From: Bacteroidota bacterium
GTDB lineage: Bacteria > Bacteroidota > Ignavibacteria > SZUA-365
Length of the DNA stretch: 64,000 bases
Assembly (NCBI GenBank): GCA_035362335.1
Contig: DAOSDL010000004.1
Location: forward strand, 114,759-178,758
Direction: 5' to 3'
The position numbers and the translations under genes are program-made. This document shows, one piece after another, positions 2,851 to 60,848 of this stretch. Numbering within the stretch: position 1 is the stretch's first letter; each line of letters starts with the position of its first letter. The notes beneath the pieces are model-generated. The model made no database searches, had not been told where the DNA came from, and saw only the letters and a program-made list of their open reading frames with translations.

Positions 2851-3539
2851 TGCTTTTCGTTCTCGGTGGCGGGGCGATGATTGAGTACCCCGTTGAAAAA
2901 GGCGATATCGATCATACGAATGCAGTGCGCGATGCTCGCCTCGATTTCCTCCTCACCCATCGTCAACTGGGGAACCCCGTTGACGCACACGAATCCTTTC
3001 TGGAGGTGCAGTGAGGAATTGAACAGGGAGAAAATGCTCGTGACGTAGAGAAATCCCATCTGCGTCGTTGGCACCTCGCCGATCTCGCCATTCTTCACCG
3101 CGCGCTGCAGCGGCTCCTCGATCACCATCAGCAGATTCGGGAACAGCATCGCGAGATGCGAGTGGCGATCCATGCGATGCATTTCCCTCATGAGCAGGTT
3201 GTACATGCCCATGTTGTTGAACAAATGATCGAGTAATTGTCGGGCGAAATTGATGTAGCTCTCCTTGAGCGACAGGGCCGGATTCGTGCATGTGGCCACG
3301 GCGATGCCCACGAATTCGTCGAAAATGTCGGCGATGACCGACTCGAACAACTCCTCCTTGTTCTGGAAGTAGTTGTACAACGTGCCCTTCCCGAATTCCG
3401 CGCGCTCCGCGATTTCATCCAGGGTGGCGGCGTCGAAGCCGCACGCGGCAAACACAACGCGCGCCGCGTTCACGATTTCCTGCCGTTTGAAGAGGCGCTC
3501 GCGTTCTTTTCTGCTGAGTTTCTGCGTTTCCTGGTTCAT
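2847..3539 (-). CDS. TetR/AcrR-family transcriptional repressor, first gene of the efflux operon
   Basis: Track ORF 2847..3653 trimmed to the ATG at 3539. MNQETQKLSRKERERLFKRQEIVNAARVVFAACGFDAATLDEIAERAEFGKGTLYNYFQNKEELF is a TetR N-terminal HTH. Confidence 0.85.
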   Translation of the reverse strand: MNQETQKLSRKERERLFKRQEIVNAARVVFAACGFDAATLDEIAERAEFGKGTLYNYFQNKEELFESVIADIFDEFVGIAVATCTNPALSLKESYINFARQLLDHLFNNMGMYNLLMREMHRMDRHSHLAMLFPNLLMVIEEPLQRAVKNGEIGEVPTTQMGFLYVTSIFSLFNSSLHLQKGFVCVNGVPQLTMGEEEIEASIAHCIRMIDIAFFNGVLNHRPATENEKQ

Positions 3540-57436: not shown

Positions 57437-59386
57437 ATGAACCACGTTCGCGTCCGCTTCGCCGTGTTTGCCATTTTCGTGATAACCCTCGTCCTTCCCG
57501 TCATCGGCCACGGCCAGGCCGGGCCTTCTTCCACCTACGAGCGCGGACTGTTCCATCTCTGTCGCGTGTGGGGATTGGCCAAATACTACCATCCCACCGT
57601 GGCGGCCGGGCATGCCAATTGGGACCTCACACTCCTCAACACCGTACCGAAGCTGCAACAGGCAGCCAACGACGACGAGATACGCGCCGTATTGTTGGAA
57701 ATGCTGAATGTGCTGGGCGATGCGCCCGATCCGGGCGGTGCCCCGGAGCAGTTCACCGCCGAGGAGCGGCAGCTGTACGATGTATCCTGGATCGATGACC
57801 CGTGGTACAGCGGGACGCTGGGCGAGTATCTGCGACATCTCCGCGACCGAGCCCGCATTCGCGACCATGTGCAGGTGTTCGCTGAACCGGGAACCGGCAA
57901 GCCAGTGTTCGACGCGGACACACGTTTCAACGATGAAGCCGAGTTCTATCCTCCCGAGGATGCGCGCGTCCTCGCCTTCTGCCGTTTCTGGAATGCGATC
58001 GAGTATTTCTATCCCTATCGCGACATTCTCGATAAAGACTGGCACGACGTACTCGCCGAGCGTATCGGCGAATGGGCGGCCGCTCCCGACACGCTCGCCT
58101 ATCACTGCGCCGCATTGCGCACCGCGGTGGAGTTGTGCGACGCGCATGTGTCCGTGAACACCAGCATCATCGCCGGCTTCCTCGGAGCAGGCTACGCTCC
58201 GTTCACCGCCATGACCATCGATGGCAGAACAGTCATCAACCGCAGCATGCACCCCGAAATTCAACCGGGCGAATTCCTCGTCTCACTCGACGATGTGCCA
58301 TTCGAACAGCGGATGGAGTACATTCGTCCCTACTGCAACAAACCGAATCCCAACTCCCTGGATCTGAGCATCATGACGCGTGCTCTGCGCGGCCCGCTCG
58401 GTTACGCCACGGCGAACATCGAGGATGCCCAGGGCAATGTGCGTACGGTAACCTTCGAGCGTACAGCGGAGAATGCCGTCGTTTGGAATATTCCCCGGCG
58501 TTCAGCCGTCATCGACACGGTGCTCATGAGTGGAGCGCGCTACGGCTATGTGGATATGGCCCGTCTCGAACGATCCCAGACCTACGATGTCATGGAGGCG
58601 CTCAGGGAAACGGATGCCATCATCTTCGATCTTCGTGGTTACCCCAAGGGTACGATCGTGGATCTGGTGAAACTCCTCATGCCCGCGCCACAGCCCATCG
58701 CGCGTTTCAGCTCGGCCAATCCGTATTTCGCCGGCATGCTGAACTGGATGACCACCGTTTTCGGTGGTGGTGGACCGTGGACGTACGAAGGTAAAATCAT
58801 TGTGCTCATCGACGAGGTGGCAATCAGCCACGCCGAATACACGGCCATGTTTTTCAAGGCCATTCCCCGCGCCGTGTTCATTGGCTCGCAGACACGCGGT
58901 TCCGACGGCAATGTGACGCGCATCTATCTACCCGGCGGATTGGATATTCTCTTCACCGGACTCGGGGTGTTCTATCCCGATGGCAGTCCCACGCAGCGCG
59001 TGGGCATACAGCCCGACATCCCTGTGCGTCCCAGCATCGCGGGGCTGCGTGCCGGGCGCGACGAAGTGTTCGACGCGGCCTTCGATCCCCTGCTACTCGC
59101 CGACGACGCCGTGGCCGTACCCGGAGTCACGGGCATGGCGCTGTATCCGAGCCACGGTCGCGGCGATGTGCAATGCGCGCTACACGGGCTCGCGCGAGGC
59201 GACTACCGTCTCGACGTGTACGATGCGTTGGGCCGCCTGCTGCATAGCGACCGGTTGAGCTTGGCCGGCGACGCGCAGCTGCGCATTCCCGCCACAGCCT
59301 TTGGCAAAGGAATGTTCTTCGTCCGTCTGCATTCCATGGACGCGCCGAGCACACCCGCGCTGCACGGCCGTTTCCTGCGCTGGTAA
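57437..59386 (+). CDS. S41-family serine peptidase with T9SS C-terminal sorting domain
   Basis: Trimmed to the ATG at 57437. Signal peptide MNHVRVRFAVFAIFVITLVLPVIGHGQA. The S41 core DLRGYPKGT...IVLIDEVAISHAEYTAMFFKAIPRAVFIGSQTRGSDGNV...VGIQPDIPV is colinear with CtpA/Tsp ...GSASASE...GxxTFGKG...GIxPDI. The C-terminus ...MALYPSHGRGDVQCALHGLARGDYRLDVYDALGRLLHS...GMFFVRLHS fits the Por tail. Confidence 0.8.
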   Translation: MNHVRVRFAVFAIFVITLVLPVIGHGQAGPSSTYERGLFHLCRVWGLAKYYHPTVAAGHANWDLTLLNTVPKLQQAANDDEIRAVLLEMLNVLGDAPDPGGAPEQFTAEERQLYDVSWIDDPWYSGTLGEYLRHLRDRARIRDHVQVFAEPGTGKPVFDADTRFNDEAEFYPPEDARVLAFCRFWNAIEYFYPYRDILDKDWHDVLAERIGEWAAAPDTLAYHCAALRTAVELCDAHVSVNTSIIAGFLGAGYAPFTAMTIDGRTVINRSMHPEIQPGEFLVSLDDVPFEQRMEYIRPYCNKPNPNSLDLSIMTRALRGPLGYATANIEDAQGNVRTVTFERTAENAVVWNIPRRSAVIDTVLMSGARYGYVDMARLERSQTYDVMEALRETDAIIFDLRGYPKGTIVDLVKLLMPAPQPIARFSSANPYFAGMLNWMTTVFGGGGPWTYEGKIIVLIDEVAISHAEYTAMFFKAIPRAVFIGSQTRGSDGNVTRIYLPGGLDILFTGLGVFYPDGSPTQRVGIQPDIPVRPSIAGLRAGRDEVFDAAFDPLLLADDAVAVPGVTGMALYPSHGRGDVQCALHGLARGDYRLDVYDALGRLLHSDRLSLAGDAQLRIPATAFGKGMFFVRLHSMDAPSTPALHGRFLRW

Positions 59387-59397
59387 ATCCACGGTAT

Positions 59398-59426
59398 CCG
59401 GGGAACGCGCGGTCTGCGTTCCCCGG
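59398..59426 (+). terminator. Strong hairpin after the S41 gene (terminator-like, weak T-tract)
   Basis: CCGGGGAACGC-GCGGTCT-GCGTTCCCCGG, an 11-bp perfect stem, followed by ATATCATTT. Confidence 0.55.
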
Positions 59427-59446
59427 ATATCATTTGCTCCGAGGTT

Positions 59447-59523
59447 CTCCTCCCCTTTCCGCCCTCCCCTCCCTTTCCGCCCTCCCCTCCCTTTCCGCCC
59501 TCCCCTCCCTTTCCGACCCTCCG
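59447..59523. repeat. 18-bp tandem repeat CCCTCCCCTCCCTTTCCG, three perfect copies plus degenerate flanks; G-quadruplex-prone on the minus strand
   Basis: Perfect copies at 59462-59479, 59480-59497 and 59498-59515. Partial copies at 59447-59461 and 59516-59523. Confidence 0.85.
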
Positions 59524-59555
59524 CGACTGTAGTCAACGCAACCGCTACGCCGCTC

Positions 59556-59584
59556 TTGACAATCTCGCGCAATCCGGATACATT
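59556..59584 (+). promoter_or_regulatory. Sigma70-type promoter candidate (TTGACA-17 nt-TACATT)
   Basis: Consensus -35 at 59556-59561, an exact 17-nt spacer and the -10-like TACATT at 59579-59584. This is about 135 nt upstream of the 59720 ATG. Confidence 0.4.
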
Positions 59585-59719
59585 GCATCCGTTATTTCCT
59601 TCATACACTTGCTTCCCTGCACGCGGTTTGTGCGCCATGTCCCGCATGGGCACGGGGGATTACTGTGGAACAATCATTCCGCGTTCTCGCGGAACATTCA
59701 CCACCTACAGGAGAGACAG

Positions 59720-60457
59720 ATGAAACGCATGCACATACACGTAATGTTGTTCCTTGCCATGGTTCTGGCGGGCACCGGCGCGTTGTTCGCGCAGGGTGCG
59801 GTGATCAAGGACAATCACATGAAGTACAACGGAAAGACATACTTCCGTGCTGGTTCGGAGGACGTTCAGATCGGATCCTACGGCGAGAAGAAAACCCCGC
59901 TCACGAAGTCGAACTATCTCGAGGTACAGGATCGCATTCCGACGCCGAAGCTCAAGATCCGTGAGGCGTTGATCGTCGACATCGATTTTAAGCAGAGCAC
60001 GAAAACCGACATCGAGGCGAACATCAACAAGAGCGTCGTGTTCAAGGGCTCGGTGAGCACGGCCTACGAGGATCTGCGGAACGACAAGCTGAAGCTCGTG
60101 AAACTCGTCATCGAGAACGAGGACATCAAGGACGCCATCAATTCCTCCCCAAAGGTGATCGAGGACCTGAAAGTGTACGGCAATGACTCGCGTGTGTGCC
60201 ACCAGGTGTTCATCGTGCTTGAGGCCTCGCTGGCGAGGACAGTAACGACTTCGACGAAATTCGACGTAAGCGGCACGGATGGCAGCCTCAAGATTTCCGT
60301 GTCCGGTGGCACGAGCAAGAGCACAACGGCCGAGATCACACTCAGTGCAGGCTCCACCTTCGCTTATGGCATCGTGAAGCTCGACTGGGATGCCAACCAG
60401 AAGAAGAACTGGAAGAAGGTCGTCAAGGCCACCGACGACCAGTGGTCGCTGAACTGA
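59720..60457 (+). CDS. Secreted 246-aa beta-rich protein; candidate gasdermin-like / beta-pore-forming domain (hypothesis)
   Basis: Trimmed to the ATG at 59720, preceded by AGGAGAG. Signal peptide MKRMHIHVMLFLAMVLAGTGALFA/QG. The Ser/Thr/Gly-rich amphipathic hairpin region is TVTTSTKFDVSGTDGSLKISVSGGTSKSTTAEITLSAGSTFAYGIVKLDWD. By-eye colinearity with the gasdermin N-domain is described in the findings. Confidence 0.45.
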   Translation: MKRMHIHVMLFLAMVLAGTGALFAQGAVIKDNHMKYNGKTYFRAGSEDVQIGSYGEKKTPLTKSNYLEVQDRIPTPKLKIREALIVDIDFKQSTKTDIEANINKSVVFKGSVSTAYEDLRNDKLKLVKLVIENEDIKDAINSSPKVIEDLKVYGNDSRVCHQVFIVLEASLARTVTTSTKFDVSGTDGSLKISVSGGTSKSTTAEITLSAGSTFAYGIVKLDWDANQKKNWKKVVKATDDQWSLN

Positions 60458-60532
60458 GGCGGCAGAGCCAGCCGATACTTTTCAACCAATGGATCCTGAT
60501 CGGCCGACAGGCAGCGCAAACCGAGACCTTCC

Positions 60533-60572
60533 GGGGCGCGGGCGCATCACAGCGCCGCGCCCCGCGCGTTTT
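60533..60572 (+). terminator. Rho-independent terminator
   Basis: GGGGCGCGGGCGC-6 nt-GCGCCGCGCCCC followed by GCGCGTTTT. Confidence 0.65.
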
Positions 60573-60774
60573 CCGACCCGGGGACACATGCGCACACAGC
60601 GCGGCATTGAAGCCGTCATCGCGGACAACCCCGCAGGCAAACGCCGCGCGAACAACGCTCAGGGGCCGGCCCGTGTCTGCGATACCAAAGCGCCACGACG
60701 CTACTGTGCCGCTCGAAAACTGCGGCACGCGTTTTAACGCATGGAAGTTCGCGTTGATTTTCTTGCAGGAGAAG

Positions 60775-60848
60775 CGCCCCCGGGGTGACTCGAACACCCG
60801 ACCTGCGGTTTAGGAAACCGTCGCTCTATCCTACTGAGCTACGGGGGC
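60775..60848 (-). tRNA. tRNA-Arg (anticodon CCU)
   Basis: Folded by hand. Acceptor stem GCCCCCG/CGGGGGC, D arm GCTC-AGTAGGATA-GAGC, anticodon arm ACGGT-TTCCTAA-ACCGC, T arm GGGTG-TTCGAGT-CACCC, discriminator G. No encoded CCA. Confidence 0.9.

Follow-up and report, generated by a model that had tools for sequence, protein, structure and literature searches.

To our knowledge, every characterised member of the gasdermin superfamily forms pores, and the characterised gasdermins of animals, fungi and bacteria are all cytosolic proteins that attack their own membrane from the inside after a dedicated trigger. The toxins of the aerolysin family and the Bacteroidales MACPF toxins (BSAPs) are Sec-exported and carry a Ser/Thr-rich amphipathic pre-stem hairpin; those of the aerolysin family become active once non-dedicated proteases have cut off a C-terminal peptide. 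Here we analyse a gene from a Bacteroidota bacterium (GTDB lineage Ignavibacteria; SZUA-365) that lies in a 64,000-nucleotide stretch of contig DAOSDL010000004.1, assembly GCA_035362335.1 (positions 114,759 to 178,758 of the forward strand), which we call the window. The gene, at window positions 59720-60457 on the forward strand, encodes 245 amino acids followed by a stop codon. We propose, with a probability of roughly one half, that its product is a standalone, transcriptionally controlled, Sec-exported single-domain pore-former of the gasdermin superfamily, and that the S41 peptidase encoded next to it is not its dedicated partner. The proposal starts from four features read in the sequence, namely homology, an export signal, the architecture of the C-terminal tail and independent transcription. 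An earlier reading of the window, made from its letters alone (the sequence-only reading), had described an exported gasdermin-like pore-former candidate beside an exported S41 peptidase, and all of the sequence features that it listed are present in the window.

How does this protein compare with the systems already described? Its likeness to bacterial gasdermins (bGSDMs) lies in the compact, pore-forming-domain-only protein with a short C-terminal peptide instead of the large eukaryotic repressor domain, in the patchy distribution across phyla, and in the occurrence of some relatives beside genes for TPR-CHAT proteins or subtilases, protease types that are also reported next to bGSDMs. It differs from the bGSDMs in having a Sec signal peptide, in going undetected by the PADLOC bGSDM model, in lacking the N-terminal Cys for palmitoylation that is seen in several, although not all, bGSDMs, and in being encoded outside any evident defence island. 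Nor is there a conserved adjacent protease: a peptidase lies nearby in about one third of the genomic contexts examined, whereas 43 of 50 bGSDM genes have a protease neighbour, most commonly a CHAT protease (Johnson et al. 2022, bioRxiv 10.1101/2021.06.07.447441). TrichoGSDM (PDB 8JYV/8JYW) and Neurospora RCD-1 (8JYZ) resemble the window protein as single-domain proteins of about 220-250 residues with no dedicated protease; they are, however, cytosolic eukaryotic proteins with a template modelling score (TM) of about 0.3 and 8-10% identity to it. The N-domain of human gasdermin D (GSDMD) is the only PDB family found by a profile of the new family, with a colinear match over GSDMD residues 100-225, but the window protein is exported and has neither the C-terminal repressor domain nor the caspase site. 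Finally, the aerolysin family and the BSAPs offer a functional analogy only. The window protein is not a member of either group: neither its sequence nor its fold matched aerolysin or MACPF proteins, and pneumolysin was only a weak Foldseek match that ranked below the gasdermins.

Homology to the gasdermin pore-forming domain

What places the protein in the gasdermin superfamily? The Pfam Gasdermin profile (PF04598) matches it with an E-value of 2.2e-5, residues 88-226 aligning with profile positions 77-222 of 240. When 33 relatives of the protein were scanned one by one against Pfam, 22 matched PF04598 (best E-value 4.5e-8) and no other family was recurrent. A profile of the 33 relatives, searched against all PDB sequences, found gasdermin-D as its sole match (E-value 0.028), and hhalign aligned the family with the human GSDMD N-domain at an E-value of 2.5e-4 and a probability of 43%; the 100-225 stretch of the GSDMD sequence used in this comparison was confirmed by the PDB profile search. 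The alignment of the family with GSDMD is colinear over GSDMD residues 100-225 and includes the segments KVLQQLRSRGD and TVTIPSGS(I/T)LAF. Similarity is best conserved in the stretches that make up the second membrane hairpin and in the strand that follows it, the N-terminal third being left unaligned by sequence methods. The sequence-only reading had aligned two stretches of the protein with GSDMD by eye; the HMMER family profile and hhalign recovered the same register, and the Pfam matches given above agree with its assignment. A search of the PDB with the window sequence by itself returned only a chance-level match to SIMPL (E-value 0.13). We consider the homology of the window protein to the gasdermin pore-forming domain, as judged by sequence profiles, to be well supported.

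The predicted structure, which lends weaker support, appears gasdermin-like but divergent. AlphaFold modelled the full-length protein with a predicted local distance difference test score (pLDDT) of 89.3, and the mature protein with a pLDDT of 93.8 and a predicted TM-score of 0.91. In Foldseek searches of the PDB with the two models, the top four and the top six matches, respectively, were exclusively gasdermins, with pneumolysin next. These matches include the TrichoGSDM pore and crystal structures, GSDMB, the GSDMA3 pore and mouse GSDMD, and TrichoGSDM is the best match of both models. For the gasdermin N-domain fold, a twisted central antiparallel sheet with two extension regions, the search gave a mixed picture, the top matches being all gasdermins and the TM-score only about 0.3. 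A search of the BFVD found no viral structural relative.

Two regions of the protein merit particular attention. Residues 174-213 are 60% Ser, Thr or Gly, and throughout the family hydrophobic and polar residues alternate on either side of a Gly/Ser-rich turn (196-203), at 181-194 and at 206-208. In its sequence pattern the 181-208 region is as expected of a membrane beta-hairpin, and both the composition and the family-wide alternation bear out the Ser/Thr/Gly-rich hairpin that had been described from the sequence. The basic tail described there is likewise present, at residues 225-245. Across 178 sequences, the Lys-rich linker at 225-233 is the least conserved segment, and the terminal strand that follows is conserved at I234, L237, D239, D240 (99%), Q241 and W242, giving a TDDQW motif; AlphaFold models residues 234-240 as a confident beta-strand. 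Exported and cytoplasmic members of the family do not differ in this tail, which favours intramolecular docking and not recognition by a compartment-specific protease. TrichoGSDM is held inactive by disulfide-linked dimerisation, and we considered the same type of control for the new family. The sole Cys of the window protein is C160, with none near the N-terminus, and no Cys column is conserved in the family or linked to signal-peptide status; disulfide control of this type was rejected.

The homologue search returned 55 clusters, all of metagenomic proteins without names, and no name for members of the family was found in any source examined. An exhaustive profile search yielded 466 representatives at 50% identity with E-values of at most 1e-3, and 175 of these lie at or below 1e-30. 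Among the 150 representatives listed, nearly all are 210-267 residues long, with a few shorter, partial-profile matches; the family is one of single-domain proteins of about 220 residues. Its genome matches are to metagenome-assembled genomes of Bacteroidota, Blastocatellia (Acidobacteriota) and Planctomycetota. Homologues were not found in collections of viral contigs, phage genomes or plasmids, and a phage- or plasmid-borne origin is unsupported. PADLOC and NCBIfam scans of the gasdermin-like and S41 proteins gave no gasdermin or defence match, and the PADLOC bGSDM model matched 1 of the 33 relatives (E-value 0.028) and not the window protein. On this profile evidence, the family is a large bacterial branch of the gasdermin superfamily that was previously unannotated and is invisible to current defence-system profiles. 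One relative, P0031 (contig L026, 5937-6603), is apparently frameshifted near its 5' end, where a different reading frame gives the match for residues 27-53; either a pseudogene or an assembly error may be the cause.

Export signal, locus layout and transcription

Is the protein exported? Its N-terminus (MKRMHIHVMLFLAMVLAGTGALFAQG, with AVIKD after the predicted cleavage site) combines a basic n-region with a hydrophobic h-region and an A-x-G site, and relatives carry an equivalent extension, in agreement with the Sec signal peptide of the sequence-only reading. In 37 of the 178 full-length representatives, an N-terminal extension of 18-45 residues runs from a basic n-region through a hydrophobic core to a terminus of the A-x-A type, and these extensions end exactly where the signal-peptide-less members start (MAxAVVKDNHL...). 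Genes of the signal-peptide-less type have in-frame stops and an AAGGAG immediately upstream of their start, which argues that the exported and signal-peptide-less forms truly differ; the idea that the signal-peptide-less relatives are merely mis-called starts is ruled out by these stops and by the strong Shine-Dalgarno sites just upstream. A rough neighbour-joining tree implies at least 13 changes between the signal-peptide-bearing and signal-peptide-less states, and in the clade of the window protein the sequence of the signal peptide diverges yet stays hydrophobic across relatives at 77-82% identity. The window protein has no lipobox and no C-terminal domain of the type IX secretion system (T9SS). 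At a minimum, it is predicted to reach the periplasm by the Sec route. Full-text literature searches for bacterial gasdermins with signal peptides, in the periplasm or undergoing export found nothing relevant in the literature covered; a structure-clustering study had mentioned unannotated gasdermin-like clusters in general terms.

The gene and its surroundings are arranged as follows, with window positions, strand and the basis of each assignment.

57437-59386 (+): predicted exported S41-family peptidase of 649 residues, with a signal peptide, an S41 domain at residues 369-530 and a T9SS-type C-terminal domain
59393-59431 (+): hairpin with a 17-bp stem past the stop codon of the S41 gene (strong fold, -32 kcal/mol, z -5.0)
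59453-59522 (no strand): 18-bp tandem repeat in the intergenic spacer, 3.8 copies of CCCTTTCCGCCCTCCCCT (repeat scan)
59552-59596 (+): promoter element, -35 TTGACA (59556) and -10-like TACATT (to 59584), with an overlapping palindrome (promoter scan, conservation)
59709-59715 (+): Shine-Dalgarno sequence AGGAGAG (sequence, conserved in four lineages)
59720-60457 (+): gasdermin-like open reading frame (PF04598 profile match, matches of relatives, PDB profile search, AlphaFold and Foldseek)
59720-59797 (+): Sec signal peptide, residues 1-26, predicted cleavage between A-Q-G and A (sequence features, family comparison)
59798-60391 (+): mature gasdermin-like core, residues 27-224, including the Ser/Thr/Gly-rich amphipathic hairpin region at about 165-213 (Pfam, hydrophobicity, model)
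60392-60454 (+): C-terminal tail, residues 225-245, basic linker 225-233 followed by the terminal strand V-x-K-x-T-D-D-Q-W-S-x-N (family conservation, model)
60532-60574 (+): candidate terminator 3' of the gasdermin-like gene, a GC-rich hairpin followed by UUUU (fold -33 kcal/mol, z -1.9); not picked up by the consensus scan
60774-60848 (-): tRNA-Arg(CCT), convergent with the gasdermin-like gene (tRNA call, Rfam scan)

The promoter found by the scan, TTGACA-17-TACATT at 59556-59584, is overlapped by a palindrome, CGGATA-N5-(T)ATCCG, at 59575-59591. The palindrome and the -35 TTGAC are kept in four close lineages, those of the window, L008/L018 (L008 at about 3113-3157), L016 and L029, despite differing flanks and upstream genes. 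Because the RNA fold at the palindrome is weak, a DNA operator is likelier than an RNA hairpin, and we regard the CGGATA-N5-ATCCG palindrome as a candidate operator. The upstream neighbour varies among the close lineages (an S41 gene, the gene for prolyl-tRNA synthetase, ProRS, or a DsrE gene), and the convergent tRNA-Arg(CCT), whose equivalents lie at L008 4304-4378, L016 1566-1640 and L029 1908-1982, is the only neighbour common to all four. The adjacent tRNA gene had been pointed out in the sequence-only reading, and this tRNA was the sole Rfam match in the 5' leader and the flanks. An integrated island at the tRNA is not supported: near the gasdermin-like gene we found no att-like duplicate of the tRNA 3' end and no integrase, and the gene has about 54-56% GC, close to its surroundings.

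Two further observations concern the locus. The tandem repeat CCCTTTCCGCCCTCCCCT is C-rich, with 98% matches between copies, and is flanked by the S41 hairpin and the gasdermin promoter; the corresponding L008 spacer can be aligned only from 59500 onward, and the C-rich tract is kept there. An AbiEi/AbiEii toxin-antitoxin-like pair with weak Pfam matches is encoded in the same genome about 5 kb 3' of the gasdermin-like gene (L001 15672-17635), and these are the only defence-type genes near it.

Genomic contexts of relatives and the neighbouring S41 peptidase

With which genes do the relatives of the window gene keep company? Signal-peptide-less members lie beside a TPR-CHAT gene together with genes for an extracytoplasmic function (ECF) sigma factor and zf-HC2 anti-sigma factors in two independent lineages, L019/L021 and L027 with L009. 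The clusters of ECF genes, zf-HC2 paralogues and TPR-CHAT genes are on Acidobacteriota-like contigs and span L019 6050-13555, L021 1438-9095 and L027 613-7194. In L028, an S8 lipoprotein and a TPR protein adjoin a signal-peptide-less member; directly 3' of this member, at L028 6794-7564, is also a lipoprotein with eight RTX calcium-binding repeats (HemolysinCabind, E-value 2e-56). In L014 and L020, which are two distant lineages, genes for a Sigma70_ECF factor (PF07638) and a Ser/Thr kinase (L014 5779-8669; L020 1-3005) are beside and divergent from a signal-peptide-less member, and in L014 the gasdermin-like gene is the last in an operon of four small open reading frames, among which three signal-peptide-like N-termini and no Pfam match were found. 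Likewise, winged-helix or LuxR-type regulators adjoin the signal-peptide-less members of L007 and L011. Overall, in this small sample of about 15 independent contexts, regulators outnumber proteases as neighbours. The CHAT and S8 proteins have signal-peptide or lipobox-like N-termini, whereas the gasdermins next to them are cytoplasmic; the signal-peptide-like N-termini of the CHAT proteins suggest that their target may be the anti-sigma factor and not the gasdermin. The statement in the sequence-only reading that known bGSDMs adjoin caspase-like or subtilase proteases has its counterpart here in some of the signal-peptide-less relatives (TPR-CHAT and S8). Hypothetical proteins encoded beside modules of ECF sigma factors, anti-sigma factors and CHAT proteins in Acidobacteriota-like genomes may be gasdermin-type effectors.

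These contexts bear on whether the family perforates membranes at all. The gasdermin fold could have been co-opted for a non-lytic role in the envelope, such as lipid binding, membrane remodelling or repair, or service as an ECF-sigma stress protein, with no pore being formed. Such a role would suit the many relatives that have ECF sigma/anti-sigma pairs or regulators as neighbours amid numerous exported proteins and lipoproteins, the lack of any link to phages, plasmids or viral contigs, the housekeeping neighbourhood of the window gene (ProRS, ferritin, tRNA and GNAT genes), and the poor superposition of the models on pore-forming gasdermins. It fits less well with the sequence of the protein, in which the best-conserved similarity to GSDMD covers the segments of the second membrane hairpin and the following strand, and the alternating hydrophobicity around a Gly/Ser-rich turn, kept family-wide, is typical of membrane-inserting beta-hairpins; moreover, we know of no characterised superfamily member that is not pore-forming. 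We consider a non-lytic role unlikely.

We next turn to the S41 peptidase. The sequence-only reading had raised the possibility that the exported gasdermin-like protein and the exported peptidase form a module in which the peptidase trims the tail and so activates the pore. The S41 gene product matches Peptidase_S41 (PF03572) with an E-value of 6.8e-14 and has a signal-peptide-like N-terminus. In the case of its Por tail, the protein itself gave no match to the Pfam Por_Secre_tail family; its C-terminus aligns with T9SS C-terminal domains, and full-length homologues match PF18962. The Ser of the segment AISHAE, which the subfamily conserves, falls at the position of the Ctp nucleophile. The sequence-only reading had noted Ser instead of the canonical Lys about 25 residues further on (TRGSDG); this is correct, and the Lys is in fact replaced throughout the subfamily, with G[SA][DN]G at the site of the GKG of Ctp. 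Pfam showed no PDZ domain in the window S41 protein; more distant S41 relatives have Tricorn_C1 or PDZ domains, and the enzyme may use a tricorn-type (Ser/His) mechanism. In the PDB, the sequence that best matches the subfamily (the window protein and homologues P0211-P0237) is a non-catalytic module of IRBP.

Could the two proteins nevertheless be partners? The pairing draws on their same-strand adjacency in the window species and in L008/L018, on the prediction that both are exported, on the action of S41 enzymes (the Ctp/Prc and tricorn families) at protein C-termini, where the gasdermin has its tail, and on the classical bGSDM-type proteases (TPR-CHAT and S8) that adjoin some cytoplasmic relatives. 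Adjacency, however, is confined to the window species and this one close lineage, in which the S41 protein is 85-91% and the gasdermin 77% identical to those of the window. The closest non-identical homologue, P0002 (82%), has DsrE upstream and no S41 gene; P0003 (77%) is directly beside ProRS, at what is the window's ProRS/tRNA-Arg locus without the S41 gene; and P0211, a 53% S41 orthologue, has a Por-tail protein downstream and no gasdermin. Other signal-peptide-bearing clades adjoin instead genes for Peptidase_Mx and ATP-grasp proteins, a multihaem/TPR protein, or ABC ATPases. Of these, the Peptidase_Mx and ATP-grasp proteins encoded upstream of P0019 and P0028 were considered as an alternative exported partner and rejected, both lacking a signal peptide. 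The caveat that the S41 and gasdermin genes are separate transcription units also holds up, as they are separated by the 17-bp-stem hairpin and by the gasdermin gene's own promoter, which is conserved in lineages that lack the S41 gene; the gasdermin-like gene of the window is monocistronic. Furthermore, the T9SS C-terminal domain would send the peptidase to the cell surface or into the medium, the canonical catalytic Lys is missing from its subfamily, no PDZ domain was detected in the window S41 protein, and the polar, acidic end of the tail is identical in cytoplasmic relatives, which cannot meet the S41 enzyme. A functional pairing is thus unsupported by the distribution of the two genes, and we judge the activating S41 module to be improbable; coincidental adjacency, which the sequence-only reading gave as a caveat, has the best support. 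The S41 peptidase is probably no dedicated partner of the gasdermin-like protein, and its adjacency is probably lineage-specific synteny.

Lastly, it is very improbable that the start has been mis-annotated and that translation truly begins downstream, for example at the GTG of Val28, to give a cytoplasmic protein and no exported gasdermin: although about 80% of the family lacks a signal peptide and starts at the equivalent of residue 24-27, and a GTG codon is indeed present at residue 28, the ATG at 59720 and its strong AGGAGAG are kept in four lineages with no comparable site before the GTG, the 26-residue extension remains open and keeps its signal-peptide properties despite sequence divergence, and 37 representatives at 13 or more positions in the tree have the same n-h-c organisation ending in A-x-A-type sites.

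A possible role outside the cytoplasm

How might an exported gasdermin homologue work? We propose that, after export, the protein would fold in the periplasm or be released further, in an inactive form, its central sheet completed by the C-terminal strand. Were this strand lost, most plausibly through cleavage of the linker at 225-233 by a non-dedicated protease, two extension regions would be free to refold as beta-hairpins, and the protein could then oligomerise and perforate a membrane. The autoinhibition, the cleavage and the pore are the steps that we infer. Expression would be controlled mainly at the level of transcription, since the promoter and palindrome are conserved in four lineages with differing upstream genes and since relatives lie beside ECF sigma and anti-sigma factors or regulators. 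The target could be the inner or outer membrane of the producer itself, in which case the protein would be an envelope-triggered suicide device, or the membrane of another cell, in which case it would be a secreted protoxin. The S41 peptidase would be a separately transcribed, T9SS-secreted enzyme that became a neighbour through local genome history.

Several points weigh against the proposal of an exported, autoinhibited gasdermin pore-former. The PF04598 score of the window protein, 24.5 bits, is 0.5 bit below the gathering score of 25. The Foldseek matches are weak, with TM-scores of about 0.3, E-values of 3e-3 to 1e-2, probabilities of at most 0.89 and root-mean-square deviations above 10 A, and the solved bacterial gasdermins are absent from the PDB matches of both models; the fold assignment therefore relies mainly on the sequence profiles. 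In the model, the tail and linker form an ordered region (pLDDT 89-98) and not an exposed loop, and the strong conservation of the tail could be structural, with no regulatory meaning. The signal peptide was called from sequence features and family comparison, and a Sec signal by itself is compatible either with retention in the periplasm or with exit from the cell. Finally, the genome and metagenome scans yielded few loci, and the survey covers only about 15 independent genomic contexts.

Taken more broadly, and as a tentative suggestion, exported gasdermins may constitute an undescribed class, in which the domain has repeatedly switched compartments and the exported forms perforate membranes from the outside, for self-destruction or as protoxins, under the control of transcription and non-dedicated proteolysis. 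If this is true, bacteria of these lineages would possess either a periplasmic self-destruct mechanism that is tripped by envelope damage or secreted protoxins directed against competitors or predators. The exported members, which make up about one fifth of the branch, would extend the gasdermin superfamily to extracytoplasmic action and would make cell-suicide effectors harder to tell apart from secreted beta-pore-forming toxins. Furthermore, the family would offer natural cytoplasmic and exported pairs of one and the same domain, with which the effects of topology, lipid leaflet and autoinhibition by the C-terminal strand on activity could be studied.

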